Assembly: GCA_965203555.1 (NCBI GenBank)
Contig: CBDBCY010000004.1
Span: 832,001-896,000, forward strand
DNA from: Acidimicrobiia bacterium
GTDB taxonomy: Bacteria; Actinomycetota; Acidimicrobiia; Spongiisociales; ZC4RG35
Direction of reading: 5' to 3'
Length of the DNA: 64,000 nt
Under the pieces are notes generated by a model. That model was not told where the DNA came from, did no database searches, and saw only the letters and a program-made list of their open reading frames with translations. Shown piece by piece: positions 16,364-35,390 of this stretch. Positions within the stretch are counted from its first letter, which is position 1; each line of letters opens with the position of its first letter. The translations under genes were made by a program, and so were the position numbers.

Positions 16364-17029
16364 GTGATCCAATCCTCCGCTTCCCCCTCCCCGACCACCC
16401 CCTTGGTGGAATTGGTCGATCTCTCCGTTTCGTTGGGCGGGGTCCGAGTACTTTCGGATTGCCGACTCACACTCCATCCCGGTGAGTGCCTGGGGGTGGC
16501 AGGACCAAACGGCGCCGGGAAATCGACGCTGCTGGCCACGGTAGCCACCTTCATCTCCCCCGCCGAGGGCGCCGGAACGGTCATGGGGGTTCCCCTCGGT
16601 ACACCCCGAACCCCGGCGGTACGCTCCCGGATCGGATGGTCCGGGCATCTCCCCGCCCTTTATCCCGACCTGACTCTTGGCGAGAACCTGACCATGGCCG
16701 CCCGGTTGAGTGGCCGCTCCGCCAACGACGGAGATCGCGCCCTCCAGAAGGTGGGATTGGGACGGGCTCGCAATATACGTGTGGAGAGGTGCTCCAACGG
16801 AATGAAACGAAGAGCCGACCTGGCCCGGTTACTGATCGGCCGGCCGCGCCTGGTGCTGCTCGACGAACCCGACGCCGGCCTGGACCGGGACGCCGCTTCG
16901 ATCATCACCCACTTGATCAGTAGAACCACCAGCCGGGGCGGCGGCGTGCTGTGCGTCTCCCACGATGCCGCCCGATTGTCGGGCTGGGCAGACCGGGTGG
17001 TGGAGATCAGGGAGGGAAGGATCAGATGA
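16364..17029 (+). CDS. ccmA: Heme export ABC ATPase CcmA
   Basis: GPNGAGKST, CSNGMKRR, LLDEP; first gene of the ccm operon. Confidence 0.88.
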   Translation: MIQSSASPSPTTPLVELVDLSVSLGGVRVLSDCRLTLHPGECLGVAGPNGAGKSTLLATVATFISPAEGAGTVMGVPLGTPRTPAVRSRIGWSGHLPALYPDLTLGENLTMAARLSGRSANDGDRALQKVGLGRARNIRVERCSNGMKRRADLARLLIGRPRLVLLDEPDAGLDRDAASIITHLISRTTSRGGGVLCVSHDAARLSGWADRVVEIREGRIR

Positions 17030-17703
17030 CGGCCGGTTTCTGGAGGTCCGCATCAATCATTGCCCTGCGCGATCTCCGGGTTGAGATTCGAAGCGGAGAA
17101 GCTCTGTCGGTGGTCTTTCCGTTCGCGGTCGTAGCCACCTGGGTGGTGCCCCTGGCGACCGACGCCTCCCGGAGTTTGCTCAGGGATCTGGCTGCTCCCG
17201 TCTACTGGCTGATCTTTCTGCTGTTCGGAATGATGATCGTTTTCCGGCAGACCGCGGTGGAGACATCGGACCAAAGGCGCGTGCTGGCGCTGACGGGCCT
17301 TGACCCGGCTGCCCGGTTCGCAGGCCGCTCAGCAGCGTCGGCACTGATCCTGGTCCCGATATCGGGGACGCTGGTCTTTCCGATCATCGTGCTCTACGAC
17401 TACCGGCCTCCGTCGGGAACGATCCTGATGGTCCCAGTGATCATCCTCGCCGCGGCAGGAATATCCATGTTGGGGACCTTGGCCGCAGATGTAACCGTGG
17501 GATTGAGGGCCCGCACCAGCCTCGCCCCCCTGCTGATGGCGCCCTTGGCCGCTCCCCTCCTGATGGGCGCTTCCCAGGCCCTGGAAAGCTTGATCGCCGA
17601 ACGCGGTATCATCATCTGGGTACTGGTGCTGGTTATCGCTGACCTGGGGTTGGCCGCCGCCGGAGTCATGTCGGCCCGGGCCTTGGAGGAAATCGCTCTG
17701 TGA
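17026..17703 (+). CDS. ccmB: Heme exporter permease CcmB
   Basis: RDLRVEIRS, six TM segments, LAPLLMAPLAAPLL; overlaps the ccmA stop. Confidence 0.85.
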   Translation: MTAGFWRSASIIALRDLRVEIRSGEALSVVFPFAVVATWVVPLATDASRSLLRDLAAPVYWLIFLLFGMMIVFRQTAVETSDQRRVLALTGLDPAARFAGRSAASALILVPISGTLVFPIIVLYDYRPPSGTILMVPVIILAAAGISMLGTLAADVTVGLRARTSLAPLLMAPLAAPLLMGASQALESLIAERGIIIWVLVLVIADLGLAAAGVMSARALEEIAL

Positions 17704-18404
17704 AAAAGAAGGTTCTCGCCACCCTGACCGTCCTGGCGTTGGCGGCGGGTCTGGCCACTGCATTCACCTCACCCCCCGACGTCTTGCAGGGTGACTTCGT
17801 TCGGATCCTCTACATTCACGTTCCTTCAGCCTGGTTGGCTTTTCTGGCCTTCGGAGTCACTGCGGTGGGAAGCATCGGGTGGCTGTTCACCCACCGGATG
17901 GGTTGGGACCGGGTGGCTGAGGCGTCTGCGGAGACGGGCGTGCTCTTCACGGCCGTCGCCCTGGCCACCGGGATGATCTGGGGAAAGCCGGTCTGGGGCA
18001 CTTACTGGGATTGGGGTGACGCACGATTGGCCACCACCGCCCTGATGTTCTTCGTCTACCTGGGCTACCTGGCACTGCGTCGCACCACGTCCGACCCCTA
18101 CCGTCAGGCCCGTCGTTCATCGGTATTGGGAGCGGTGGCGGTCGTGCAGGTGCCGCTGGTCTATTTTTCGGTGAAACTGTGGCGCACCCTCCACCAGGGT
18201 CTCACCATCCGCCCCGACGGCATCCAAATGGACGGCGCCATGGTCACGGCACTGCTGGCGAACCTGGGAGCTTTCACCTTGCTTTACCTGACTCTGATCA
18301 GCTTCCGGACCGAACTGGCCCGACTTGAGAAAGCTGTTCACGAATCGCAGGTCTCGGTCCAAAACCGTGTCACCGTCCCCCAACTGGGTAAAGCAGAAGC
18401 GTGA
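17700..18404 (+). CDS. ccmC: Heme exporter CcmC
   Basis: RILYIHVPSAW, TGMIWGKPVWGTYWDWGDARL (WWD domain), WRTLHQ. Confidence 0.94.
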   Translation: MKKKVLATLTVLALAAGLATAFTSPPDVLQGDFVRILYIHVPSAWLAFLAFGVTAVGSIGWLFTHRMGWDRVAEASAETGVLFTAVALATGMIWGKPVWGTYWDWGDARLATTALMFFVYLGYLALRRTTSDPYRQARRSSVLGAVAVVQVPLVYFSVKLWRTLHQGLTIRPDGIQMDGAMVTALLANLGAFTLLYLTLISFRTELARLEKAVHESQVSVQNRVTVPQLGKAEA

Positions 18405-18511
18405 ACGCCGGTTGGGTATGGGCAGCGTATCTTGCCACGGGCCTGATCCTGGCGGGCTACGTTCTCCGCCTGGTGGTCCGGTGGCGGAGGGCGACCGGTC
18501 GCCGCGACTGA
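18401..18511 (+). CDS. ccmD: CcmD-like small membrane protein (36 aa, absent from the ORF track)
   Basis: MNAGWVWAAYLATGLILAGYVLRLVVRWRRATGRRD; overlaps the ccmC stop and ccmE start. Confidence 0.75.
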   Translation: MNAGWVWAAYLATGLILAGYVLRLVVRWRRATGRRD

Positions 18512-18918
18512 TGAAGGTACGCCGCTGGCCGTTTTTGATCTCGGCGGGGGTGGCCATCCTGATAGCCGGCTTCTTCCTGGTGCAGAACATCGGCAACGAC
18601 CTGGTCTACTACCTCACTCCCCACGAAGCCGTGACCCAGCGCGCCGACTTCACCGACGGCCGGCGCTTCCGGTTGGCGGGCGTCGTGGTGGAGGGGTCGC
18701 TGCGGGAAGGTAGCGATCCGCTCAGGTTCGAACTCACCGATGGCGCTTCCACCATTTCCGTCCTTCTCACCGACACCCCTCCTCTCCTGTTCGACGAGGA
18801 TGTGAACGTGCTGCTGGACGGGGCTTGGCAAGATGATCACTATCGGGCGGACGGGGCACTTGTATCCCATGATGAGAATTACGAGGCCCCTCCGGTGACC
18901 GGCGTCTCGGAACCCTGA
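18511..18918 (+). CDS. ccmE: Heme chaperone CcmE
   Basis: LVYYLTP, RFRLAGVV, PLLFDE, HDENY (HxxxY). Confidence 0.93.
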   Translation: MKVRRWPFLISAGVAILIAGFFLVQNIGNDLVYYLTPHEAVTQRADFTDGRRFRLAGVVVEGSLREGSDPLRFELTDGASTISVLLTDTPPLLFDEDVNVLLDGAWQDDHYRADGALVSHDENYEAPPVTGVSEP

Positions 18919-20966
18919 TGCTCTCCTTCTCCGGAACCCTGGCGGTGTGGGCGGCGCTGTTCGGCGCGGCCTGGCTGACATTGACGGCTTGGCAGGCGGC
19001 CAGGCGGCGCTCTTTCTCCGTAGCCGTTCTCCGTAGGCCGATGCTGACCATGGTCCTGGCTGCCGTGGCCGCCATGGTGGTCCTGCTCGCCGCCCTGCTG
19101 GCCAACGATTTCACTGTCTCCTACGTGGCGAACCACCATTCCCGACATACCCCTTTTCCCTTCAACATCGCCACTGCCTGGGCGGCTCTGGAGGGCTCTA
19201 TAGTGCTCTGGGGGCTGGTGCTGGCCGGTTATGCCTACTTCGTCTGGCGACGAGCCACCACCAGAAGTGGGCAGCCGGACGCCTTGGACTGGGGCGCCCT
19301 GGCTGCTATCGCAGCGGTGGGGGTGTTCTTCTTCGGATTGATGGCTACGGTGGGCAATCCCTTCGAGGTGTGCGTGGAGGCCACCTCCCGCTCCTGCGCC
19401 GTCTCCAGCGCCATACCCTTCTCCCCGGCGGTGGGGCCTGCTGACGGCGCCGGCCCCAACCCGCTCTTGCAGAACCATATCTTGATGGCTATTCACCCAC
19501 CGCTTCTCTACCTGGGCTACGTGGGAATGACCGTTCCCTTCGCCTATGGCGTCGCCGCCCTGGCCCTGCGCCGACCCGGTTCGGAGTGGCTGCGCCGAAG
19601 CGGCATGTGGACCAGGATCAGCTGGGTGTTTCTCACCGCCGGCATCACCCTGGGCGCCTGGTGGGCTTACGAGGTGTTGGGCTGGGGAGGGTATTGGGCG
19701 TGGGACCCGGTGGAGAACGCCTCTTTCATGCCCTGGCTGGTCGCCACCGCCTTCCTGCATTCCTCCCTGGTGCAGGAGCGCAGAGGAATGTTGGAGGCGT
19801 GGAATTTCGTGCTGGTGATCGGAACCTTCTCCTTGACCATCCTCGGCACTTTCCTTACCCGTTCCGGAGTGATCGCTTCGGTCCATTCCTTCACCCAGTC
19901 GGCGATCGGCCCGGCGCTTTTGGGATTCCTGGTGGTGGTGGTGGTGGGCTCGTTCACTTTGTTCGCGGCGCGCGCCCAGTTGATCTCCTCACCTCCCCGG
20001 TTGGAGTCCCTTTCCAGTCGGGAGGGGAGTTTCCTGCTCAACAACCTGCTCTTGACTGTGTATGCAATGGTGGTGCTGACCGGCACCATCTATCCGCTGG
20101 TGCTGGAAGCCTTCACCGGTTCTGAGGTGGGAGTGGGGAGGCCCTTCTTTGATCGTCTGGCCGTTCCCATCAGCTTTGCCCTGTTGCTGGCGATGGGTTT
20201 GGGACCCGCCCTCCCCTGGCGGGTGGCCCGGCCCAAAATAGTGTGGCCCCGGATACATCTTCCCCTCCAAGTGGCGTTGGGAGTCGCAGCGGTGGTGGTG
20301 ATGACCGCCACCGCGATCGGCTATGTGGTGCTGGCGGTGCTGGCGGGCAGCTGGGTGGTGGCGGTGGCTGCCTATCGCCTCTGGGCCCAGGCCCGTCGGA
20401 TCGCCGGATCCAGAGGAACGGCGGTTCACAGGCAGTTGGGAAGAGTCGTCCGGTCCGATCGAGGGTTCTGGGGAGGCCAGGTGGCTCACGCCGGGGTGGC
20501 GTTGGCGGCGGTGGCCATCGCCACCACCGCCAACCTGGGGCAAACCCTGGACCGGGTGGAGCTGACGCCCGGGGACCGGGTCGAGTTTGCCGGGTACCAG
20601 TTGCTCCACACCGGCGTGGACACTGCCAGGACGCCAAACCGTCTCACCAGTTCCGCCGCCGTGCAGGTCTGGAAGGACGACGCATTGCAGGGACTGGCGA
20701 GACCTTCCCTGAGCCAATTCGAGACCTCGGCTCTGCCGATTGCCACTCCCGGGATACATCGCACCTTCAAAGAGGACCTCTACCTGAGCCTGACCCGCAT
20801 CGACGAGCAGGGCATCACCCTGCGGGCGGCCACCGCTCCCCTCCAATGGGTGCTGTGGGTGGGCGGCCTGCTCTGCGCGGCGGGAGGTCTCTATTCGCTG
20901 GTGGGACGGAACCGTCGCCGGTCCGCCTCCCCGGCCCGGATGAAGGGACCCCGCCCGCGTGGATGA
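18918..20966 (+). CDS. ccmF: Heme lyase CcmF
   Basis: NDFTVSYVA, WAALEGS, NPLLQN, IHPPLLYLGY, WAYEVLGWGGYWAWDPVENASFMPW, SVHSF. Confidence 0.96.
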   Translation: MLSFSGTLAVWAALFGAAWLTLTAWQAARRRSFSVAVLRRPMLTMVLAAVAAMVVLLAALLANDFTVSYVANHHSRHTPFPFNIATAWAALEGSIVLWGLVLAGYAYFVWRRATTRSGQPDALDWGALAAIAAVGVFFFGLMATVGNPFEVCVEATSRSCAVSSAIPFSPAVGPADGAGPNPLLQNHILMAIHPPLLYLGYVGMTVPFAYGVAALALRRPGSEWLRRSGMWTRISWVFLTAGITLGAWWAYEVLGWGGYWAWDPVENASFMPWLVATAFLHSSLVQERRGMLEAWNFVLVIGTFSLTILGTFLTRSGVIASVHSFTQSAIGPALLGFLVVVVVGSFTLFAARAQLISSPPRLESLSSREGSFLLNNLLLTVYAMVVLTGTIYPLVLEAFTGSEVGVGRPFFDRLAVPISFALLLAMGLGPALPWRVARPKIVWPRIHLPLQVALGVAAVVVMTATAIGYVVLAVLAGSWVVAVAAYRLWAQARRIAGSRGTAVHRQLGRVVRSDRGFWGGQVAHAGVALAAVAIATTANLGQTLDRVELTPGDRVEFAGYQLLHTGVDTARTPNRLTSSAAVQVWKDDALQGLARPSLSQFETSALPIATPGIHRTFKEDLYLSLTRIDEQGITLRAATAPLQWVLWVGGLLCAAGGLYSLVGRNRRRSASPARMKGPRPRG

Positions 20967-21393
20967 CCAACCGACCGTCAAGCGGCGTCTCCGGCGGCTC
21001 TCCCCCCTGGTCACGGTAGGGCTGGGGATCTTCATACTGGTCTCGGTCGTAAACGCCGACCCTATAGCTCAAGACCGTTCCGAGCGCCTGGGAAAACAGG
21101 TGCGCTGCCCGGCCTGCGAAGGGGAATCCATAGCCGAGTCGCCCAGTTCCTACGCAGCCGACATGATGACCTACGTGCGTGAACTGATAGACGGGGGGCT
21201 GTCCGACCGGCAAGTCTTGGACCGGTTGATGGCGTCATACCCGGATTCCCAGTTACTCGATCCTCCGCTGAGAGCCGGCACTGTTCTGTTGTGGCTTGTT
21301 CCCGCCGCCGCCTTGCTGGCCGGTGCGGGCCTGGCCGTATCCCGCCTCCGCAGGCGGCCGATCTTCTGGCCGGATGGAGATCCCGGTGAGTGA
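20959..21393 (+). CDS. ccmH: CcmH N-terminal domain protein
   Basis: VRCPACEGESIAES, LLDPP, LLWLVP. Confidence 0.9.
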   Translation: MDDQPTVKRRLRRLSPLVTVGLGIFILVSVVNADPIAQDRSERLGKQVRCPACEGESIAESPSSYAADMMTYVRELIDGGLSDRQVLDRLMASYPDSQLLDPPLRAGTVLLWLVPAAALLAGAGLAVSRLRRRPIFWPDGDPGE

Positions 21394-22174
21394 GGAATCC
21401 AAGTGGCAGCGGCGATTCGACCAGGCCTCCCGGGATCTGGAAGAGTTGGAACTGCAGCTCGCCCAGGGTGAGATACCCGCGTCAACCGGTAGGAGACTGC
21501 AAGAGACATACCGGGAGGAGATGGAGGAGGCCCGGCGCGGCATTGGGGATGCAACACCAGGAGTGGACCCCGACTCGGCGCCTGCCGGGGAGGACGTCCG
21601 GTCCACGGGATTCTGGAACCAGGGAAGGATCTTGGTGGCGGTCATTCTGGCGGCCGCCGCCTTGGCGTTGGTGGTTTCAGTGGGTTGGTTCGCCCGGCCC
21701 GAACAGCAGGTCGCTTCCGACCAGGAGTTCGATCCGTCCAGTTATTCCAACGAGACCATGGAGGCGGTGATCGCCGCCAACGCCGATCACCCCCGGATAA
21801 ACGGGATGCGCCTGGCCCTGGCAGCGCGGTATTTCCAGGCGGGAGAATTCTCGGGCGCCTTTGCCCATTACCGGGAAGTATTGGAACGCGACCCGCTCCC
21901 CGGCGAGGAGGCCGAGGCTTTGAGACGCCTGGGTTGGATGGCCTGGGCGGGTTCGGGAGAAGTTCAGTTGGCCGTCGAGACCCTGGACCGGTCCCTGGTC
22001 GTGGTCCCAAACCACCCCCAGACCCTCTATTTCAAGGCCATTGTCCTCTGGTGCGGCGCCGGACAGCATCAGGAGGCTGTTCCGCTATTGGAACGAGTTG
22101 TCGAAGCTCTGCCCGCCGAGACCGAAGTCGTCGCCGAACTGGCCGCCGCCCGGGAGGGAGAAACGTGTCGGTGA
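21386..22174 (+). CDS. CcmI/CycH-like TPR protein
   Basis: DLEELELQLAQGEI segment, one TM, TPR-like helices; operon position. Confidence 0.75.
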   Translation: MSEESKWQRRFDQASRDLEELELQLAQGEIPASTGRRLQETYREEMEEARRGIGDATPGVDPDSAPAGEDVRSTGFWNQGRILVAVILAAAALALVVSVGWFARPEQQVASDQEFDPSSYSNETMEAVIAANADHPRINGMRLALAARYFQAGEFSGAFAHYREVLERDPLPGEEAEALRRLGWMAWAGSGEVQLAVETLDRSLVVVPNHPQTLYFKAIVLWCGAGQHQEAVPLLERVVEALPAETEVVAELAAAREGETCR

Positions 22175-22725
22175 GTTACAAGCCCGGCCGGGCGGTGATG
22201 GCTCTTGCGGCACTGGTGGTGGTCTCGACTGCGGTTGTCGCCGGGGTTTTTGCCTCCCGACTCTCAAACGACCCCCTATCAACCCCCTCACCGCTGATCG
22301 GCAGGCAGTCACCCATCTTGACCCTTCCGTTCCTGGACGGATCGGGGGAACTCGCCATCCCGGATCCCGAGGCCGAGGTGACCATCATCAACTTCTTTGC
22401 ATCCTGGTGCCTGGAGTGCCGGGTGGAGCATGCCGATCTGATGGCGGTGGCCGATGCCTTCTCCGGGGCGGGAGTCCGACTGGTCCAGATCGCCTACCAG
22501 GATCGCACCACAGACGCCATCGCCTTCGTCAACGAGATGGGAGTTTCACCCCTGGTCGGCTACGTTTCCGACCCCGGCAGTCGCGCAGCCATCTCATTCG
22601 GGGTTTTCGGGGTGCCGGAGACTTACGTCATCGGACCGGACGGCACGGTTACGGAAAGGATCACCGGACCGACCACCGCCCTGCAGTTGGGTGAACAGAT
22701 AGACCGCGTGCTGGGCGCCGGGTAG
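22171..22725 (+). CDS. ccmG: CcmG/DsbE thiol-disulfide oxidoreductase
   Basis: SPLIG, INFFASWCLECRVEH, GVFGVPETYVI. Confidence 0.88.
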   Translation: MSYKPGRAVMALAALVVVSTAVVAGVFASRLSNDPLSTPSPLIGRQSPILTLPFLDGSGELAIPDPEAEVTIINFFASWCLECRVEHADLMAVADAFSGAGVRLVQIAYQDRTTDAIAFVNEMGVSPLVGYVSDPGSRAAISFGVFGVPETYVIGPDGTVTERITGPTTALQLGEQIDRVLGAG

Positions 22726-22748: not shown

Positions 22749-24143
22749 CTACGGGATCAACTCGAATAGCACTCCCGGCGGTGGGGCCTGGGTCAGGTCT
22801 CTGCCGCCCACGCCCATCAGGTGGCGGTCAAAAAACGAGACCAGGTAACGGTCGACGATGGCAAAGACCTGAGCCGCGGGCATGGAACCTCGCAACCCGA
22901 ACCAACCTCCCACCGGGGAGATCGCCGGCGCCGCGGTCAGATCGCTGTGTACGGTGTTTTCGATCCCAATCCAGTAGGTGCGCCGGTTGCTGCGTTCCAC
23001 CAGACCCCTCAGCACCCCGTCATTCTCCAGTTCTCGCCAAGGGTCGGACCGAATGAACATGGAAGGCACATCCAGTTCTGTCGAGAGTTCCGAGGCGGTG
23101 ATCGGCTCGACCCACCCGTCCAGGGAGGCCACAACCCGACACCTGGTATCTACCAGACAGGTCCTGACTGCCGCTCCTCCGCCGAGAGAGTGACCGTAGA
23201 TTCCCAGGCGTTCCATATCTGCAATCCCCGCCAATGATCCGAATGGTCCGCTCACCCCCTCTTCCAAGCCGGCGATGACCATCAAGAGATCATCAGAGTA
23301 GGTCTGCAGAATCCTTATCGCCGCTACTTCGAACGCATCATCGCCTACTTCGTCCAGATCGGGAAGCGCATCGGGATCCAATCCGACCACCTCCCCGTCC
23401 GGAAATACCGTGGCCACCGACCCGTAAGTGTGGTCGACTGATATGACCAGGTACCCGTGGCTGGCCAGGGACTCCATTTGGTGCACTGCCGCGTTGCGGA
23501 ACAGTCGCCATCCGTGTGAATAGAGAATGACCGGGATCTTTCCCTGATAGGGCAGGGCTTGCTCGTAACTGTGAGCGCCCGTATAGCGGGTGTGATCGAG
23601 AAGGAAGCCCGGGATGCCCAGGGTTTCGGCCAGAGCCGGTCCCACTACTTCCAAGTCCTCGATCCAGGGACTGAGCGGTTCGGCATCCCCTGATACTCGA
23701 CCGGGATACCAGACCTGCACCATCACTCGCCGGAATTCGCCAGGATTGGCCCCGTAGTCCTCGAGTCGATCATCGCTGCGGATCTCAAAGCTGCGGGTGG
23801 CAATCTGATAGGGTCCGGTCGGCGGAGGCATTTCCACGATGGGCAGGGCCCACAGCGGAATGATCACCAGCATGATTCCGACCACACCCAAGACCGCCCT
23901 GCGGATACGCTGGTAGGACTCCAGCCGTCTCTCACCGGCCAGCAGATCACCCAGTGCCATCCCGAGGGCCACTGCGTACAAACCCCACAGTTGCCACCGG
24001 AATCCCTCCACCAGAAACTGCATCGACCCACAGGCCGACAGCACCACCGCCACCACCCCTCTGGGGAGCCGCTTGCCCTCCAACGCCGGCCAGATGATGG
24101 CCAGTACACAGGTCCCGGTAAGCAGTACCTCCCAGAGTCTCAT
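22749..24143 (-). CDS. Membrane-anchored alpha/beta hydrolase (PAF-acetylhydrolase-like)
   Basis: EGFRWQ, PTGPY, MVQVWYP, YSHG, LASHGY, GHSLGG, LDGW, HSD. Confidence 0.88.
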   Translation of the reverse strand: MRLWEVLLTGTCVLAIIWPALEGKRLPRGVVAVVLSACGSMQFLVEGFRWQLWGLYAVALGMALGDLLAGERRLESYQRIRRAVLGVVGIMLVIIPLWALPIVEMPPPTGPYQIATRSFEIRSDDRLEDYGANPGEFRRVMVQVWYPGRVSGDAEPLSPWIEDLEVVGPALAETLGIPGFLLDHTRYTGAHSYEQALPYQGKIPVILYSHGWRLFRNAAVHQMESLASHGYLVISVDHTYGSVATVFPDGEVVGLDPDALPDLDEVGDDAFEVAAIRILQTYSDDLLMVIAGLEEGVSGPFGSLAGIADMERLGIYGHSLGGGAAVRTCLVDTRCRVVASLDGWVEPITASELSTELDVPSMFIRSDPWRELENDGVLRGLVERSNRRTYWIGIENTVHSDLTAAPAISPVGGWFGLRGSMPAAQVFAIVDRYLVSFFDRHLMGVGGRDLTQAPPPGVLFELIP

Positions 24144-24200
24144 GAAACCTCAGTCACGTCCGTTGGAACCAGGAACCGTGACGGACCGGTTACCGAGTGT

Positions 24201-25055
24201 TCAGCCCGATACGGAAAGCAGCTCTTCGATGGCGCTCCTCAGGGAAGATTCACCCTGAGCACCGAACAGCGTCTGGACAATGGTCTTGTCGGCGCCGACC
24301 AGAACGGTCACCGGCTGGTAACCGACTCCATAGGCCGAAAAGATCCGCTCCTCCTGGTCCAGGCCCCACTTCACTGCTCCGCTGGTCAAAAGCTGCCCGG
24401 CTCTTTGTGAGGTGTCCGACAGGCCGGCCTTCCAGGCCGGAGCCACGAATGCCACACGATCCTGGTACTCGGTCGCCAGTTGATCCACGACGGGCAACTC
24501 CCGTCGACAAGCCGGTCACCACTCGGCCCAAAACACCAGGTAGACAGGCCGCGGTTCGGCAGAAAGGGTGAAGGTTCCACCGTTTCCCAACTCCAAGGTG
24601 AAATCGGGTGCGCCTGGACGATCATGAGCCTCGGTCGTGGTGGTCGTGGGAGCAGCCGTAGAAGTGGTAGTGATCGCCCCAGTGGTTGTCGGGGGTTGGG
24701 TGGTGGGAGCGGCAGTCGTGGTGGCGACAGTGTCCTCGTCGGTCACAACCGCCACCGTGGTGGTGACGTCCGTGTCAACCTCCTCAGCCGCCGTCGTCTC
24801 TGCTGCCACCGTGTTCGTGGTTACCGCCCCGCTGGTCGGCGCCGGATCGTTGTCGCCCAAAGCGGGATCCTCAACCCCTGAAGAAGGTTCCTCCACCGGC
24901 TGGTCCAAGGTCGACTGGGTGGTTGGCGCGGCACCGGCGCTTTCGATCTGTGGGTCCGTATCTTCCGAACCACATGCGCTCCACACCAGTCCGCAAAGTA
25001 CCCAGACAGCCAACCTCACCCGGCCAGGGGGTTGGGAAGGCTTTGTGCGGCTCAT
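24201..25055 (-). CDS. Selenocysteine-containing redoxin (TlpA-like) lipoprotein, UPAC, 284 aa, Thr-rich linker
   Basis: ORFs 24516-25055 and 24201-24497 are in frame across a TGA at 24516-24518: FWAEW-U-PACRRELP...GYQPVT; lipobox WSAC. Confidence 0.9.
24488..24506 (-). promoter_or_regulatory. Bacterial SECIS-like hairpin
   Basis: CGACGGG-AGUUG-CCCGUCG; loop begins 16 nt after the UGA. Confidence 0.8.
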
Positions 25056-25651
25056 CAGGCGTCAGCCAACAGGGTGTCGAGGACCTCCCGGATCGCATCG
25101 GGGTTCCTGGCTCCGCGCCAAGTGGAGACCAGGGAGCCGTCGGCCGCGATGATCGCCCCGGCCGGCTGTCCTCCCACACCGTAGGCGGCGAAAACCTCCT
25201 GCTTTCCATCCAACCCCCACAGGACCTTCCCTGAAGGCAACAGACGATCTGCAACCTGGGTGGTATCTTCCAAACTCGACTTCCAGGCCGGCGCCACCAC
25301 CACGACCCTCCCTTCGTATTCCCCGGCCAACTGGTCGAAAGCGGGCAACTCCCGCCTACAGGTAGGTCACCACTCAGCCCAAAAGATCATAAGGACCGGG
25401 GTGGTCTGGTCCGAAAGAGCGAACGTCCCGCCATCGGCCAACTGCAATGTGAAATCGGGCGCCGGCGGCCCGAGAAGTTCATCCGTGGTTGTCGGGGTCG
25501 TGGTTGCAACTGTGGTTTCGGGAGAGCTGGTCACCGCGGCGACGGCCTCCGCCGGTTCACTGCTGTCCGAACCCCCGCCCCCGCAGGAGGATACGACCAA
25601 ACCAATCAGCAACAATACGGCTGTCCAAGACCAGCGCCCGCCGCGATTCAT
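25055..25651 (-). CDS. Selenocysteine-containing redoxin (TlpA-like) lipoprotein, UPTC, 198 aa
   Basis: ORFs 25367-25651 and 25055-25348 are in frame across a TGA at 25367-25369: FWAEW-U-PTCRRELP...GGQPAG; lipobox VSSC; TGATG coupling to the next gene. Confidence 0.9.
25339..25357 (-). promoter_or_regulatory. Bacterial SECIS-like hairpin
   Basis: AGGCGGG-AGUUG-CCCGCUU; loop begins 16 nt after the UGA. Confidence 0.8.
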
Positions 25652-25738
25652 GTGAAAAAGTATAGGTGAAAGACGGTCTTTACACCGCGGGTGAAAGTGC
25701 TCACCGGATTTGCGCCGGTGGCGCCCGCCCTGGGTTCT

Positions 25739-26749
25739 TCACGTACTGCTGAGTTCGATTACCTGGTCGAGCACCTGTTCCGCCGCTCCCGAATCAATAG
25801 ACCTTGCCGCCATACGGGCCCCATCCGTCGCCGTTTCCGCCAACCCGGCCACCATCAGCGTCGCAGCCGCGTTGGCCACCGCCGCGTCCCGGCGGGGACC
25901 GACCTCACCGGCCAACACGGACCGGAGCATCATGGCGTTGCGGCGGGCGTCTCCTCCTATCAGTTCGGAAACATCAGAAGACGCCAGACCGAAGTCATCG
26001 GGGGTGAACACGATCGGTGTAACCTCGCCGCCCGCCAATTCGAAGCCCCTGGTGGGGCCTGAGACCGACACTTCATCCAACCCGTCGTCGGCATGGATCA
26101 CCAATGCCCGCTCCGTCCCGAGACGGGAAAGCACTCCGATCATCCGCTCCGCCATCCGGCTGTCGTAAACGCCGATCAGTTGACGAGTGGCGCCTGCCGG
26201 ATTGGTGAGCGGCCCCAGAAAATTGAAAACGGTGGGTATCCCCAATTGACGCCGGATCGGAACCACATACTTCATGGCCGGGTGGTACCGGGGAGCAAAG
26301 AAGAACCCGAATCCGGCCTCCCTAACCATCTCGGCGGTTTGTTCCGGCGCAAGTTCGATGCCCATTCCCAGGGCTTCCAATACATCCGCCGATCCGCACT
26401 TCGAGGAAGCCGACCGGTTTCCGTGCTTCGCCACTTTGGCACCGGCTCCCGCTGCGATCAGGGCGGCGGTAGTGGAGATGTTGAAAGTGCCGGAGCGATC
26501 TCCTCCGGTCCCGGCCGTGTCCACCACCGGCTCCCCTATCGATACCCTGACGCCCACGGCCCGCATGGTCTCGACCAGGCCGGCCATCTCATCGGTGGTT
26601 TCACCCTTGATTCGAAGCGAGACCAAAAAAGCAGACGTCTGAGCCGCGGTGGCCTGTCCGCTCATGATGTCATTCAGGGCCGCCCGGGCCTGCTCCCGGC
26701 TCAAGTCCTCCCCGGCCGTCAGCTTTCCGAGTACATCAGCCCAGTTCAT
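25739..26749 (-). CDS. trpD: Anthranilate phosphoribosyltransferase
   Basis: DTAGTGGD, TFNIST, AKHGNRSASSKCGSADVLE, FNFLGPLTNP, DGLDE. Confidence 0.96.
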   Translation of the reverse strand: MNWADVLGKLTAGEDLSREQARAALNDIMSGQATAAQTSAFLVSLRIKGETTDEMAGLVETMRAVGVRVSIGEPVVDTAGTGGDRSGTFNISTTAALIAAGAGAKVAKHGNRSASSKCGSADVLEALGMGIELAPEQTAEMVREAGFGFFFAPRYHPAMKYVVPIRRQLGIPTVFNFLGPLTNPAGATRQLIGVYDSRMAERMIGVLSRLGTERALVIHADDGLDEVSVSGPTRGFELAGGEVTPIVFTPDDFGLASSDVSELIGGDARRNAMMLRSVLAGEVGPRRDAAVANAAATLMVAGLAETATDGARMAARSIDSGAAEQVLDQVIELSST

Positions 26750-32200: not shown

Positions 32201-33670
32201 TCAAATCAAAGTCGGGTCGATAGGGTAGAGAGGCCGGGGGGCGTGCACGAATCGCAGATACTCCAAGCGGGGAGTGCTGGCGCCGGGCAGGTCGAGGGTG
32301 ATGGCTTCCGGCGCCGCAGTGGGGAAGTTGGCCCGGTAGTCGCTGCAGGATCGCACCACCAGCACATCTGTGCGATCAGGATCCAGACCGGCGTGTCGCC
32401 AGGTAGCCGGGTCGGCGGTGATGGCAGGCCGGGAAGAGATCAGAAGATGGTGACGTCCCGTGGTCAGGACAGCCCACTCACCCATCGAAACCTCCCTGCC
32501 GGTAAAGGAGCATCCTGTTAATCGATAACTCCCCGCCCCGGCGCTGGTAACCACCCCCTCCACGGTCACCTGCCGGGCGGCGGGATTGAAACCTCCGCCC
32601 ACGTCGACCTTCGTTCTGCTCCCCACCGCCCGACCACAATGTCGCGCCGCGGCGGGGTCCAGCACCGAGTGCAGCACCGTCAGGTCAGCCCCGTGCCGGG
32701 CCGCCTCGGTCACCAGTATCGGATCATCCCCGGAAGCGCCGGCCGTGGGGCAATCGGCAGTGTGCGCCATGACGAACGGCCGGGTAGAGGAAAGCCGGGC
32801 CGTGGCAAAAGCGGCAGAAGTCGTAAGGATCCGGGGGGTGACCATCCTTCCCCGTCGTCGCCAAACCTCATAGGCCAACCCCTCGGCCATCAAAGACGCC
32901 CCTTCGGCATCGTCGTCGGTGACCACCAACACCCCCAAACCGAGTTCCGGCACATCCAGCCAGGGCTGGACGGGAAAGACGGACACGTCCAAAACCTGAT
33001 CTCTGATCAGACCATTGGCTATTGTCCTCACTTCCGACATCGGGCCCACATCGGTGCGCATTCCCTCGGCAGGGATCAGAAGTGACCGCTTGGCCAGCCC
33101 CATGGCGGGCCTGATCTCGTTTCGCGCCGAGGCGGCCACCAGCCGGGCGATTCGCTCTCCTGTCGAAGCCATGTCGATATGCGGCTCGGTGTGATATCCC
33201 ACCATCACATCCGCCAACTCCACCATCCGGACGGTCAGGTTGGCGTGTAGATCCAGGCACACCCCCACCGGCGCCCCGTCCATGCGCCTGCGGGCGACTT
33301 CTATGAGCGTCGAATCAGCGTCGAAGTGATCCTCCGACACCATTGCCCCGTGCAAGGACAGCACCAGCCCGTCAAGCTTGCCGGCCTGCTTGATACCGGC
33401 GTCAAGCAACTCGGACAGCCGGTGGAAGGTCCCCTCCGTGACCGGCCCCGACGGGAGTGCCCAGGCAGCAACCAGAGGCACGTGATCTACGCCCCGCTGG
33501 CGCAATTCGGAAACCGCTCCTGCAAATTCGGTGTTGGTTCCCTCCAAAGCGACTTCCGCCTCAGCGCCGACAAGAACGGTGAAGTCTTCCCATTCGGTCG
33601 GCTTCGGGCTGAAAGTATTGGTCTCCTGAACCAGGGAGGCAACCCCAATCCTCGGACCAGCCCCGACCAT
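32201..33670 (-). CDS. M81 metallopeptidase (MlrC-like), copy 1
   Basis: QETNTFS, LSLHGAM, LDLHAN, EPHID, PWLDVPELG. Confidence 0.92.
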   Translation of the reverse strand: MVGAGPRIGVASLVQETNTFSPKPTEWEDFTVLVGAEAEVALEGTNTEFAGAVSELRQRGVDHVPLVAAWALPSGPVTEGTFHRLSELLDAGIKQAGKLDGLVLSLHGAMVSEDHFDADSTLIEVARRRMDGAPVGVCLDLHANLTVRMVELADVMVGYHTEPHIDMASTGERIARLVAASARNEIRPAMGLAKRSLLIPAEGMRTDVGPMSEVRTIANGLIRDQVLDVSVFPVQPWLDVPELGLGVLVVTDDDAEGASLMAEGLAYEVWRRRGRMVTPRILTTSAAFATARLSSTRPFVMAHTADCPTAGASGDDPILVTEAARHGADLTVLHSVLDPAAARHCGRAVGSRTKVDVGGGFNPAARQVTVEGVVTSAGAGSYRLTGCSFTGREVSMGEWAVLTTGRHHLLISSRPAITADPATWRHAGLDPDRTDVLVVRSCSDYRANFPTAAPEAITLDLPGASTPRLEYLRFVHAPRPLYPIDPTLI

Positions 33671-33920: not shown

Positions 33921-35390
33921 TCAGACCAACACCGAATCGAGAGGATAGAGAGGGCGGGGGGCGTGTTGGAAATGGAGGCTCTCCAGTTTGGGGGTGCTGG
34001 CCCCGGGTAGGTCGAGGTTGATCGCTTCGGGGGCGGCGGAGGGGAAATTGGCCCGGTAGTCACTGCAGGAACGTACCACCAGGACATCCGCCTGATCAGG
34101 ATCCAGTCCGGCATGACGCCAGGTGGCCGGATCGGCGGTGATGGCGGGAAGGGAGGTGACCAACAGATGGTGAAGACCGGAAGTGATGACCCCCCACTCG
34201 CCCATCGAAACCTCTCTTCCCGTGTGGGACAGGCCCGTCATCCGGTAGCTCCCCGCCCCGGCCGCGGTAACCACCCCCTCCACGGTGACCCGTCGCGCCG
34301 CGGGATTGAAAACCGCCCCCACCTCCATCCGCACCCGGCTTCCCACCGACCCCGCACAACGGCGGGCGGCCGCGGGGTCCAGCACCGTATGCATCACCAC
34401 CAAATCGGCCCCGTGCATTGCGGTCTCGTTCACCATTATCGGATCGTCCCCCGTAGCCCCGGCGGTGGGGCAGTCGGCGGTGTGCGCCATCACAAACGGC
34501 CGGGTCCCCGATCGCCGCGCAGTAGCAAAAGCCGCCGCGGGAGTCATGACTCGGGGGGTGGTCATCCGGGACCGTCTTCGCCAGACCTCATCCGCGAATT
34601 GCTCCGCCAGGCGGATGGCGCCGTCGGGGTCATTGTCGGTAACCACCAAAACCCCCAAACCGAGTTCCGGCACATCCAACCAGGGCTGCACCGGGGAGAT
34701 CGAGATGTCCAGCACCGGGCCTTCGGTCTTCCGGTCAGCGAGTTGGCGGACCTCGGACATCGGGCCCACGTCGGTACGCATGCCTTCGGCAGGGATCAGC
34801 AGCGGCCGTTTGGCCAAAGCCATAACGGGAGAGATGCTGCCCCGCACCGTGGCGGCGACCAGACGGGCGATTCTCTCCCCGGTCGACCCCATATCAATGT
34901 GCGGTTCGGTGTGGTATGTCACCATAACGTCCGCCGATTCCACCATCCGGCCGGTCAGGTTGGCATGCAGATCCAGGCAAACCCCCACCGGCGCACCGCC
35001 CATGCGCCTGCGGGCGACCTCTATGAGCATCGAATCAGCGTCGAAGTGGGTCTCCGACACCATCGCCCCGTGCAAGGACAGCACCAACCCGTCAAGCTTG
35101 CCGGCCTGCCTGATACCGGCGTCAAGCAACTCGGACAGCCGGTCGAACGTCTCCTCCGTAACCGGTCCCGACGGGAGGGCGTCCGCCGACAGCAACGGGA
35201 CCGGTTCCCCTCCCAGTCGCACCAGTTCGGCGGCCGCCCCGGAGAATTCCGAGTAGGTGCCGCCCAGGACATCCAATGCCTCCCGCCCCACCAGGACCGT
35301 GAAATCCTCCCACCCGGTGGGCCTGGGGCTGAATGTATTGGTCTCCTGAAAGACGGAGGCGACCCCTATCCTCGGGCTGGATCCGACCAT
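33921..35390 (-). CDS. M81 metallopeptidase (MlrC-like), copy 2
   Basis: Same motifs and same 489-aa length as copy 1. Confidence 0.92.
   Translation of the reverse strand: MVGSSPRIGVASVFQETNTFSPRPTGWEDFTVLVGREALDVLGGTYSEFSGAAAELVRLGGEPVPLLSADALPSGPVTEETFDRLSELLDAGIRQAGKLDGLVLSLHGAMVSETHFDADSMLIEVARRRMGGAPVGVCLDLHANLTGRMVESADVMVTYHTEPHIDMGSTGERIARLVAATVRGSISPVMALAKRPLLIPAEGMRTDVGPMSEVRQLADRKTEGPVLDISISPVQPWLDVPELGLGVLVVTDNDPDGAIRLAEQFADEVWRRRSRMTTPRVMTPAAAFATARRSGTRPFVMAHTADCPTAGATGDDPIMVNETAMHGADLVVMHTVLDPAAARRCAGSVGSRVRMEVGAVFNPAARRVTVEGVVTAAGAGSYRMTGLSHTGREVSMGEWGVITSGLHHLLVTSLPAITADPATWRHAGLDPDQADVLVVRSCSDYRANFPSAAPEAINLDLPGASTPKLESLHFQHAPRPLYPLDSVLV

Follow-up and report, generated by a model that had tools for sequence, protein, structure and literature searches.

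A thioredoxin-fold gene that is interrupted by TGA at the very codon of its attacking residue may be a broken gene or the gene of a selenoprotein. This question is raised by two adjacent genes, here called A and B, on the reverse strand of the window, i.e. the whole 64,000-nucleotide stretch analysed from the genome of an Acidimicrobiia bacterium (GenBank assembly GCA_965203555.1, contig CBDBCY010000004.1, positions 832,001 to 896,000). A first-pass annotation made from the letters alone had proposed a tandem pair of exported, lipid-anchored redoxins with selenocysteine (Sec, U) in a UxxC motif, and every computational test applied to this core reading supports it, as far as sequence can. A and B are very probably genuine selenoproteins, namely redoxins of the TlpA type, predicted to be exported and lipid-anchored, with Sec at the attacking position of UxxC. 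The evidence is computational and comprises gene structure, Sec machinery, Sec/Cys pairing, a hairpin linked to the UGA, purifying selection and protein fold. Coordinates are those of the window, proteins are conceptual translations in which the in-frame TGA is read as U, and split open reading frames (ORFs) follow translation table 11.

Under table 11, gene A appears as two ORFs (25367..25651 and 25055..25348) and gene B as two others (24516..25055 and 24201..24497). As had been claimed, these four fragments join into two genes, each with a single TGA in frame, at the codon that opens UxxC (WAEW-TGA-PTC in A, WAEW-TGA-PAC in B). The two genes are coupled, the stop TGA of A (25057-25055) sharing one base with the ATG of B (25055-25053) in a TGATG (25057-25053), and their products are 55% identical across 135 amino acids spanning the TGA. 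The thioredoxin fold does run on past this codon, with Pfam Redoxin, AhpC-TSA and Thioredoxin matches that cross it in both read-through proteins. Gene A scores 54.7 bits for AhpC-TSA and 52.5 for Redoxin, gene B 41.4 for Redoxin and 40.4 for AhpC-TSA (cut-offs 26 and 26.6), and the Thioredoxin match exceeds the gathering score in each.

The TGA is conserved among relatives. The comparison set consists of 41 genomes. Besides that of the window, it takes in 16 genomes from its genus, 8 from further genera of its family and 16 from other families of its order. In 33 of the 41, a single in-frame TGA interrupts at least one homologue found at E≤1e-25 (57 matches of this kind); in one (G024) the homologue is full-length and has no stop, and the other seven give no match at that threshold. 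Two genomes of the set, G027 and G038, are unpublished; both are without the redoxin family and both have selA, and no conclusion depends on them (when they are left out, selA is found in 37 of 39 genomes and CcmF in 38 of 39). Across 42 motif-bearing genes in 20 loci the motif reads WAEW-TGA-xxC in 41 and WAEW-TGC-PVC in the one from G024, with frames intact on both sides of the column. Public protein sets contain 13 further full-length homologues with WAEW-C-P[TV]C, i.e. with Cys at the TGA column. The alignment of homologues gives the Cys/TGA pairing that the first-pass annotation had proposed to look for: 41 TGA and one TGC in a single column, besides the 13 Cys forms of the databases. The same protein sets hold three N-terminal fragments with ...FWAEW as their last residues, one of them the 112-residue product of the window itself, and five C-terminal fragments that begin shortly after the motif. 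Gene callers thus split the family at the TGA, and the expectation that standard annotation would miss these genes is borne out, public records holding halves.

The distribution of the family is narrow. Of 201 sampled genomes of the class, 39 have it, all of them from the window's own order, and 40 of the 43 matches carry one TGA; the three matches without it come from genus g9 (2) and genus g36 (1). In 301 genomes of the phylum it occurs in 7, all of the same Acidimicrobiia order, with a TGA in 9 of 9 matches. Neither sample gave the family in any other order or class, and in the genomes sampled it is confined to one order of Acidimicrobiia. A search of genome contigs for related loci returned three loci only, one of which is a mere motif match in Nocardioides. 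A distant homologue with one in-frame TGA (34% identity, E 1.8e-12; G034:C61:5558-6169) is present in one of the seven comparison genomes without the main family and may represent a divergent Sec-containing branch. Two stop-free matches located between A and B copies (G002:C1:736847-737140 and G005:C2:2551756-2552055) cover residues 98-197 only and are therefore uninformative on the TGA column; they look like the remnant C-terminal half of a further copy.

Reading UGA as Sec requires a dedicated machinery, and all four genes named in advance, selA, selB, selC and selD, are found in the genome of the window (3.42 Mb in four contigs, estimated 95% complete). It carries selA (411 bits) with an adjoining selB (282 bits), a tRNA-Sec (78.7 bits; anticodon tca according to ARAGORN) and a selD (379.8 bits) that itself has one in-frame TGA, with U within GAG-U-GCK; all four exceed the curated or gathering cut-offs. 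Counting this selD, at least seven selenoprotein genes are present in addition to A and B, in each of which a domain spans the TGA (Table 1). Among them are a third lipoprotein redoxin, which reads SPF-U-ETC and has a lipobox and a Thr-rich linker, a SelL-related peroxiredoxin-like (Prx-like) protein (W-U-PYC), a WAxxUGC ResA-like protein (L065; 259.5 bits on NF041054, below the cut-off of 300), a UGSC-family gene, an AhpD-like peroxidase-related protein (CHY-U, 137 bits) and FdhA (647 bits). A composition-filtered scan for TGA-interrupted ORFs recovered six other selenoprotein genes and missed A, B and selD, so this listing of the selenoproteome is incomplete. With at least nine predicted selenoprotein genes, three of them for predicted lipoproteins, the genome appears Sec-rich for an actinobacterium. 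The first-pass annotation had regarded Sec use as uncommon in the phylum; this does not hold for the present lineage, in which selA is found in 39 of the 41 genomes and these further selenoprotein genes accompany A and B. Of the three genomes with Cys forms (G024, G219 and G098), G024 is the one that was checked for Sec machinery: at 95% completeness it has no selA and no selD, and its two borderline tRNA-Sec matches are tRNA-Ser.

A candidate selenocysteine insertion sequence (SECIS) follows the UGA in both genes. The criterion was a stem-loop with a small G-containing apical loop, as in bacterial SECIS elements; A and B each have a 7-bp stem closed by the loop AGUUG (Table 1), and the two stems differ by compensatory changes. 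In the alignment of the 41 TGA forms, 85.7% of stem cells pair. The covariation score of the stem is 0.248, against 0.141±0.015 in shuffles (reached by 0 of 500), and stem cells changed on both sides number 20 where 7.5 are expected (again reached by 0 of 500). Six slid registers all score lower (maximum 0.197), stem pair 21-35 occurs as GC in 20 sequences, AU in 10 and GU in 5, and RNAalifold recovers the stem core. At least five of the seven pairs are in register in 36 of the 41 Sec forms, and the remaining five have a shifted stem, CGGC-AGUU-GCCG. The stem overlaps the codons of a conserved peptide, C-R-R-E-L-P, which is also kept in the Cys forms, and the decisive control is therefore the RNA of those forms. 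There the hairpin is absent in three of three (G024, G219 and G098), with 2-4 of the seven pairs in register and a local minimum free energy (MFE) of -1.8 to -4.5 kcal/mol versus -6.4 to -14.5 kcal/mol in Sec forms.

Comparable hairpins follow the UGA of other selenoprotein genes of this genome. Their loop is GGUCU in the genes for FdhA, the AhpD-like protein and the WAxxUGC protein, and AGUU(G/C) in those for the UGSC protein, the SelL-related protein and the third lipoprotein redoxin; G-U at loop positions 2-3 is common to all eight hairpins, A, B and FdhA included. In E. coli, a G-U in the apical loop is a determinant for SelB. A permissive Rfam search of 24000-25900 gave two chance-level matches only and no bacterial SECIS family. 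Short pieces of further metagenome contigs align, with 2-4 differences, to nothing but the segment of about 50 nucleotides at 24483-24535, which comprises FWAEW-UGA and the hairpin. No other stretch of the family is as strongly conserved at the nucleotide level, which joint protein and RNA constraint would lead one to expect.

Selection acts on the codons beyond the TGA. Against the orthologue of G004, the downstream part of gene A has a non-synonymous rate (dN) of 0.061 and a synonymous rate (dS) of 0.640 (dN/dS 0.10), and that of gene B a dN of 0.246 and a dS of 0.853 (dN/dS 0.29). Over all usable pairs, many with dS near saturation, the median dN/dS is 0.185 upstream (35 codons, 676 pairs) and 0.355 downstream (848 pairs). 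Relaxed selection past the TGA, which the first-pass annotation had named as a refuting outcome, was looked for, and the selection found there is purifying. The locus is also present in six runs of four studies of sponge, coral and marine metagenomes. Contigs from three runs of two other studies (X2, X3 and X5) show 22-23 differences over 1451 positions of the window, 18 of the 30 variant sites being synonymous. None of the differences falls on either TGA, and the TGC or TGT that a sequencing error would have hidden is not seen in these independent contigs, which have no letter other than TGA at the two codons. Taken with the other results, this rules out a sequencing error.

The predicted structure agrees with the sequence matches. 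In an AlphaFold2 model of A, residues 60-198 have a predicted local distance difference test score (pLDDT) of about 96 and residues 1-57 are disordered. The helix 96-111 begins directly after U95, which places UxxC at the start of helix alpha-1, and P163, the conserved Pro in the loop opposite the active site, is invariant in 15 sequences. Foldseek aligns the domain of A with B. subtilis ResA (1st9, TMt 0.90), M. tuberculosis DsbF (3ios, 0.89) and DsbE (1lu4, 0.83), pneumococcal Etrx1 (0.85) and Etrx2 (0.84), and E. coli CcmG (2b1k, 0.77). By this model, A and B would adopt a thioredoxin fold of the TlpA/ResA/DsbE type. The best sequence matches in the Protein Data Bank (PDB) are the pneumococcal Etrx entries 4hqs (52 bits), 4evm, 2yp6 and 4hqz.

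Assignment to a named family was also attempted. No NCBIfam model claims A or B at its cut-off. ResA (NF002854) is rejected with 51.6 bits for A and 51.5 for B (cut-off 170), CcmG/DsbE (TIGR00385) with 35.3 and 26.3 bits (cut-off 123.15) and TlpA with 38.2 bits (cut-off 230). The WAxxUGC selenoprotein model NF041054 is rejected likewise, with 32.9 bits for A and 27.3 for B against a cut-off of 300 and with a motif U-P-x-C that is not U-G-C.

At both N-termini a basic n-region is followed by a hydrophobic core and by a lipobox (VVSS-C23 in A, VWSA-C28 in B), and a lipobox pattern, searched with an expression modelled on the PROSITE lipoprotein rule, occurs in 38 of the 42 homologues. The genome has lspA (88.1 bits, cut-off 73.95) and one CcdA-type (DsbD_TM) gene (47.1 bits, cut-off 27.1). 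The lipobox Cys and U are separated by a linker rich in Thr, Pro, Ala, Asp and Glu. Its length distinguishes the paralogue types, with 71-131 residues for type A, 151-248 for type B and 38-39 for type C, a type without a copy in this genome. Many type-A orthologues from several species of the genus (L023-L036) carry a C-terminal tail of 14-19 residues, ...LSGSNSFSIGS...PG, which the A of the window does not have.

Some observations weigh against the interpretation of A and B as exported Sec redoxins. The lipobox of gene B has an unusual W at position -3, and the match to lgt, although it extends over positions 5-273 of 280, reaches 73.8 bits only, below the curated cut-off of 118.9. One genome with TGA forms, G035, has no selA match at 98% completeness. 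It does have a TGA-containing selD and a tRNA-Sec (80.2 bits, anticodon tca) that lies 721 nucleotides from a contig start, and its selA has therefore probably been lost in an assembly gap. The MFE of the two hairpins is no better than that of dinucleotide shuffles (z of 0.58 and -0.79). Since these scores are not significant in this GC-rich coding sequence, reliance is placed on covariation and on the contrast between Sec and Cys forms. Hairpins with an AGTTG loop after TGA are not discriminating genome-wide, with 5 of 11 in open frames; counts for eight other loop words range from 0 to 5 (0-4 for the six unrelated controls and GTTGA, 5 of 29 for AGTT, 0 of 1 for AGTTA). The ccdA gene is about 200 kb from A and B, with no redoxin beside it. 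Finally, the strain variants of gene A downstream of the TGA are two synonymous and two non-synonymous, too few to inform.

One premise of the first-pass annotation has to be abandoned, namely that the two TGAs would have to be independent events. In a quick maximum-likelihood tree (IQ-TREE, unrooted in effect), the B copies of the genus group together (support 96), as do the A and C copies (support 100), among which C is nested (support 98), and both groups are sister clades. The Cys forms fall into one cluster (support 95), within which a single Sec form has an unresolved position. Because B and A+C are sister clades, the tandem array would stem from a duplication within or just before the genus, in an ancestor that already had the TGA. 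A and B thus appear to have arisen by genus-level tandem duplication of a TGA-bearing gene, and on this tree their TGAs are not independent. The sound argument is the persistence of the TGA, with intact frames, across species and not the coincidence of two mutations.

Table 1. Features of the Sec-redoxin locus and its surroundings (window coordinates), followed by further selenoprotein loci of the same genome (contig and positions)
Feature	Coordinates	Strand	Remarks
Gene A, predicted selenoprotein lipoprotein redoxin, 198 aa with U95	25055..25651	-	stop TGA 25057-25055
Gene A, putative Sec codon (UGA), residue 95	25367..25369	-	context MIFWAEW-U-PTC
Gene A, predicted lipoprotein signal peptide, residues 1-23	25583..25651	-	lipobox VVSS-C23
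Gene A, disordered Thr/Pro/Ser-rich linker, about residues 24-60	25472..25582	-	pLDDT <50 for residues 1-57
Gene A, TlpA/ResA-type thioredoxin-fold domain, residues 61-198	25058..25471	-	active site U95-P-T-C98
Gene A, SECIS-like hairpin, 7-bp stem AGGCGGG/CCCGCUU, loop AGUUG	25339..25357	-	starts 9 nt 3' of UGA
Gene B, predicted selenoprotein lipoprotein redoxin, 284 aa with U180	24201..25055	-	stop TGA 24203-24201
Gene B, putative Sec codon (UGA), residue 180	24516..24518	-	context LVFWAEW-U-PAC
Gene B, predicted lipoprotein signal peptide, residues 1-28	24972..25055	-	lipobox VWSA-C28
Gene B, long acidic Thr/Pro/Ala-rich linker, about residues 29-145	24621..24971	-	
Gene B, TlpA/ResA-type thioredoxin-fold domain, residues 146-284	24204..24620	-	active site U180-P-A-C183
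Gene B, SECIS-like hairpin, 7-bp stem CGACGGG/CCCGUCG, loop AGUUG	24488..24506	-	starts 9 nt 3' of UGA
System I cytochrome c maturation operon: ccmA, B, C, E, F, H and Cys-type CcmG/DsbE (22165-22725)	16364..22725	+	convergent with A and B
Membrane-anchored PAF-acetylhydrolase-like hydrolase	22749..24143	-	immediately downstream of gene B
trpD	25739..26749	-	directly upstream of gene A, 87-nt gap
Further selenoprotein locus L063	C4:2443373-2444125		
Further selenoprotein locus L064	C4:378322-379002		
Further selenoprotein locus L065	C2:5175-6380		
Further selenoprotein locus L066	C1:20720-21562	-	
Further selenoprotein locus L067	C4:337631-338179		
Further selenoprotein locus L068	C4:1465089-1467038		
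Further selenoprotein locus L069	C4:2892600-2893800		

The features of Table 1 suggest how A and B would be made and would work. SelB with Sec-tRNA(Sec) would be recruited at UGA95 of A and UGA180 of B by the hairpin that starts 9 nucleotides downstream, and selenocysteine would be inserted in place of termination. The precursor would be exported, Lgt would add diacylglycerol to Cys23 of A or Cys28 of B, and LspA would cleave, leaving the mature protein anchored on the outside of the cytoplasmic membrane. The disordered Thr/Pro-rich linker, which has about 37 residues in A and some 117 in B, would serve as the tether. The selenolate may then attack an oxidised extracytoplasmic substrate, be it a protein disulfide, a sulfenate or a peroxide, after which the resolving Cys would form an intramolecular selenenylsulfide. 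The single CcdA-type membrane reductase of the genome is the candidate for regenerating the reduced form. Export, lipidation, the electron donor, the direction of electron flow and the substrates are all inferred here.

A and B might belong to a surface antioxidant system like that of Etrx, or act as direct selenol peroxidases, in either case repairing envelope proteins or reducing peroxides outside the membrane. The pneumococcal Etrx entries are the best PDB sequence matches, and the architecture is the same, with a lipoprotein, a TlpA-like domain and a CcdA in the genome. AhpC/TSA matches are as strong as Redoxin matches, the other selenoproteins of the genome are mostly of antioxidant type (AhpD-like, SelL-related Prx-like, UGSC and WAxxUGC), and the organism occurs in sponge and coral metagenomes. 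The target of the Etrx proteins is the extracellular methionine sulfoxide reductase (Msr) MsrAB2, i.e. a lipoprotein redoxin feeds an exported reductase. Inspection of the sole MsrA and the sole MsrB of this genome, however, shows no hydrophobic segment at the N-terminus of either, so there is no visible sign that the known target is exported here. An Etrx-to-Msr model is rejected, no exported Msr having been found among these two proteins with inspected N-termini, and the wider antioxidant role is a tentative alternative that we consider rather unlikely.

The neighbourhood suggests another role, in cytochrome c maturation. A and B could be Sec-containing accessory reductases of System I that pass electrons to CcmG/CcmH or to apocytochromes. 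Their fold is like that of CcmG (TMt 0.77), and the U-P-T-C of A resembles the CPTC context of E. coli CcmG. Moreover, a ccmG-ccmH-ccmF cluster lies 0.1-6 kb away not only in the window but in 9 of 14 related loci of other genera and of several families, where it is convergent as well. TrpD adjoins the redoxin in 9 of these 14 loci, and the hydrolase stands between redoxin and ccm in 5. This arrangement is convergent and not operonic, however, and 5 of the 14 loci have neither ccmH nor ccmF nearby. In addition, the operon has its own redoxin (ASWCLEC; FGVFGVPETYVIGPDG), a DsbE/CcmG orthologue that matches TIGR00385 over its full length with 90.8 bits, below the cut-off of 123.15, versus 35.3 bits for A and 26.3 for B. 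CcmF occurs in 39 of the 41 genomes, and it is present in 5 of the 7 that do not have the redoxin family (4 of 5 when the two unpublished genomes are left out). An obligatory role in cytochrome c maturation is therefore rejected, on the phyletic pattern and the better CcmG in the operon, and an accessory one is improbable. The neighbouring operon has its Cys-type CcmG, and A and B would come on top of it.

Since an obligatory Ccm role is unlikely and the Etrx model has no visible target, A and B are most likely generic lipid-anchored selenol/thiol oxidoreductases, which would be reduced by CcdA and act on oxidised envelope substrates. A more speculative view, of which we are doubtful, is that the two or three tandem Sec-redoxin paralogues together make up a selenium-based redox shield, graded by depth, on the outside of the membrane, each type having its own tether length. 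If so, selenol sites at different distances within the envelope would scavenge oxidants or peroxides or repair proteins, independently of cytochrome c maturation, perhaps as an adaptation of this order to oxidant-rich habitats such as sponge or coral hosts.

Two explanations would dispense with Sec altogether. On one of them, A and B would be pseudogenes or split genes in which translation stops at the TGA and the part beyond it is either not translated or produced on its own. Public gene calls do treat the family in this manner, with the N- and C-terminal fragments described above. Yet the TGA stands in the same catalytic column in 41 of 42 genes between intact frames, the dN/dS beyond it is 0.10 in A and 0.29 in B, and the hairpin is linked to the UGA. 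The Cys forms include that of G024, the genome checked and found to be without Sec machinery, and, judging from the model, neither half alone could form a thioredoxin fold. We hold this explanation to be highly improbable. The genome-wide reassignment of TGA to a standard amino acid such as Trp or Gly would account for the open frames only and can practically be dismissed, given that A and B themselves end at TGA (so that TGA is also a stop in this organism), that the in-frame TGA aligns with Cys in homologues and not with Trp or Gly, that a dedicated tRNA-Sec with selA, selB and selD is present, and that the in-domain TGAs found are all at known Sec positions of known selenoprotein families.

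The neighbourhood of A and B is conserved, with trpD and an aquaporin gene upstream of gene A on the same strand. The neighbours of ccdA (L058, G000:C4:631344-634919) look, by motif, like an anthranilate synthase gene (trpE) and a methyltransferase gene; a trpE-like gene by ccdA and trpD by the Sec redoxins may be a coincidence or an old synteny of tryptophan and envelope redox genes. Most Actinobacteria use System II for cytochrome c maturation, and System I across this order is itself perhaps noteworthy. Elsewhere in the window, two tandem paralogous metallopeptidases of the M81/MlrC type (DUF1485 and MlrC_C), each of 489 amino acids, are encoded at 32201-33670 and 33921-35390 on the reverse strand.

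The locus matters in several respects. It provides a well-supported case of selenoprotein genes that are halved by public gene calling, and it indicates that at least one order of Acidimicrobiia uses Sec broadly. In another order of the class, the Actinomarinales, Sec machinery, about five selenoproteins per genome and a Sec-type selD are described in a 2026 preprint (10.64898/2026.04.03.716425). A report of 2017 noted that bins of sponge symbionts are enriched in selA and selB (PMC5649159), and one of the redoxin loci analysed here (L042) comes from one of those bins. The A/B family offers a concrete, lineage-wide target for that enrichment. It also amounts to a natural experiment, with Sec forms that have the hairpin and Cys forms that do not, the latter including a genus apparently stripped of Sec machinery. 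This contrast could address what selenium buys an extracytoplasmic thiol-disulfide oxidoreductase.

UxxC selenoproteins of the TlpA-like and Prx-like kinds have been on record since 2005 (PMC1088965, PMC2398784 and PMC13188914), among them a UxxC family of cd02966 (PMC13188914). The Global Ocean Sampling (GOS) survey lists Prx-like 1 (pfam00578, 225 sequences), Prx-like 3 (pfam08534, 68 sequences) and Trx-like 2 (PMC2398784). These families are comparable with A and B by their descriptions, as distinct from example sequences: they have a thioredoxin/TlpA-like fold, Sec at the first position of UxxC and Cys homologues, and they too are of marine metagenomic origin and predicted by computation only. 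The WAEWUPxC motif, the lipoprotein anchor with long linkers, the tandem arrays of 2-3 copies, the restriction to one order, the order-wide conservation with Sec lost where its machinery is missing (as in G024, the Cys-form genome checked) and the AGUUG-loop hairpin were not found described in the published text searched, supplementary tables being outside that search. The A/B family is a further case of an already known type of UxxC selenoprotein and no new kind of system.

Among individual systems, the ResA-like WAxxUGC (seleno)proteins of NF041054 share with A and B a ResA-like fold and a Sec that follows a WAxxW or WAxx context, but their motif is U-G-C and their length about 350 amino acids, whereas A and B have U-P-x-C and belong to lipoproteins of about 200-280 amino acids. 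Etrx1 and Etrx2 of S. pneumoniae (4hqs and 2yp6; 32% and 25% identity) are, as predicted for A and B, lipoprotein-anchored TlpA-like domains, with CxxC instead of UxxC. ResA, DsbE and DsbF of M. tuberculosis and CcmG/DsbE have the same fold as A and B and are extracytoplasmic thiol-disulfide oxidoreductases, all of which use Cys.

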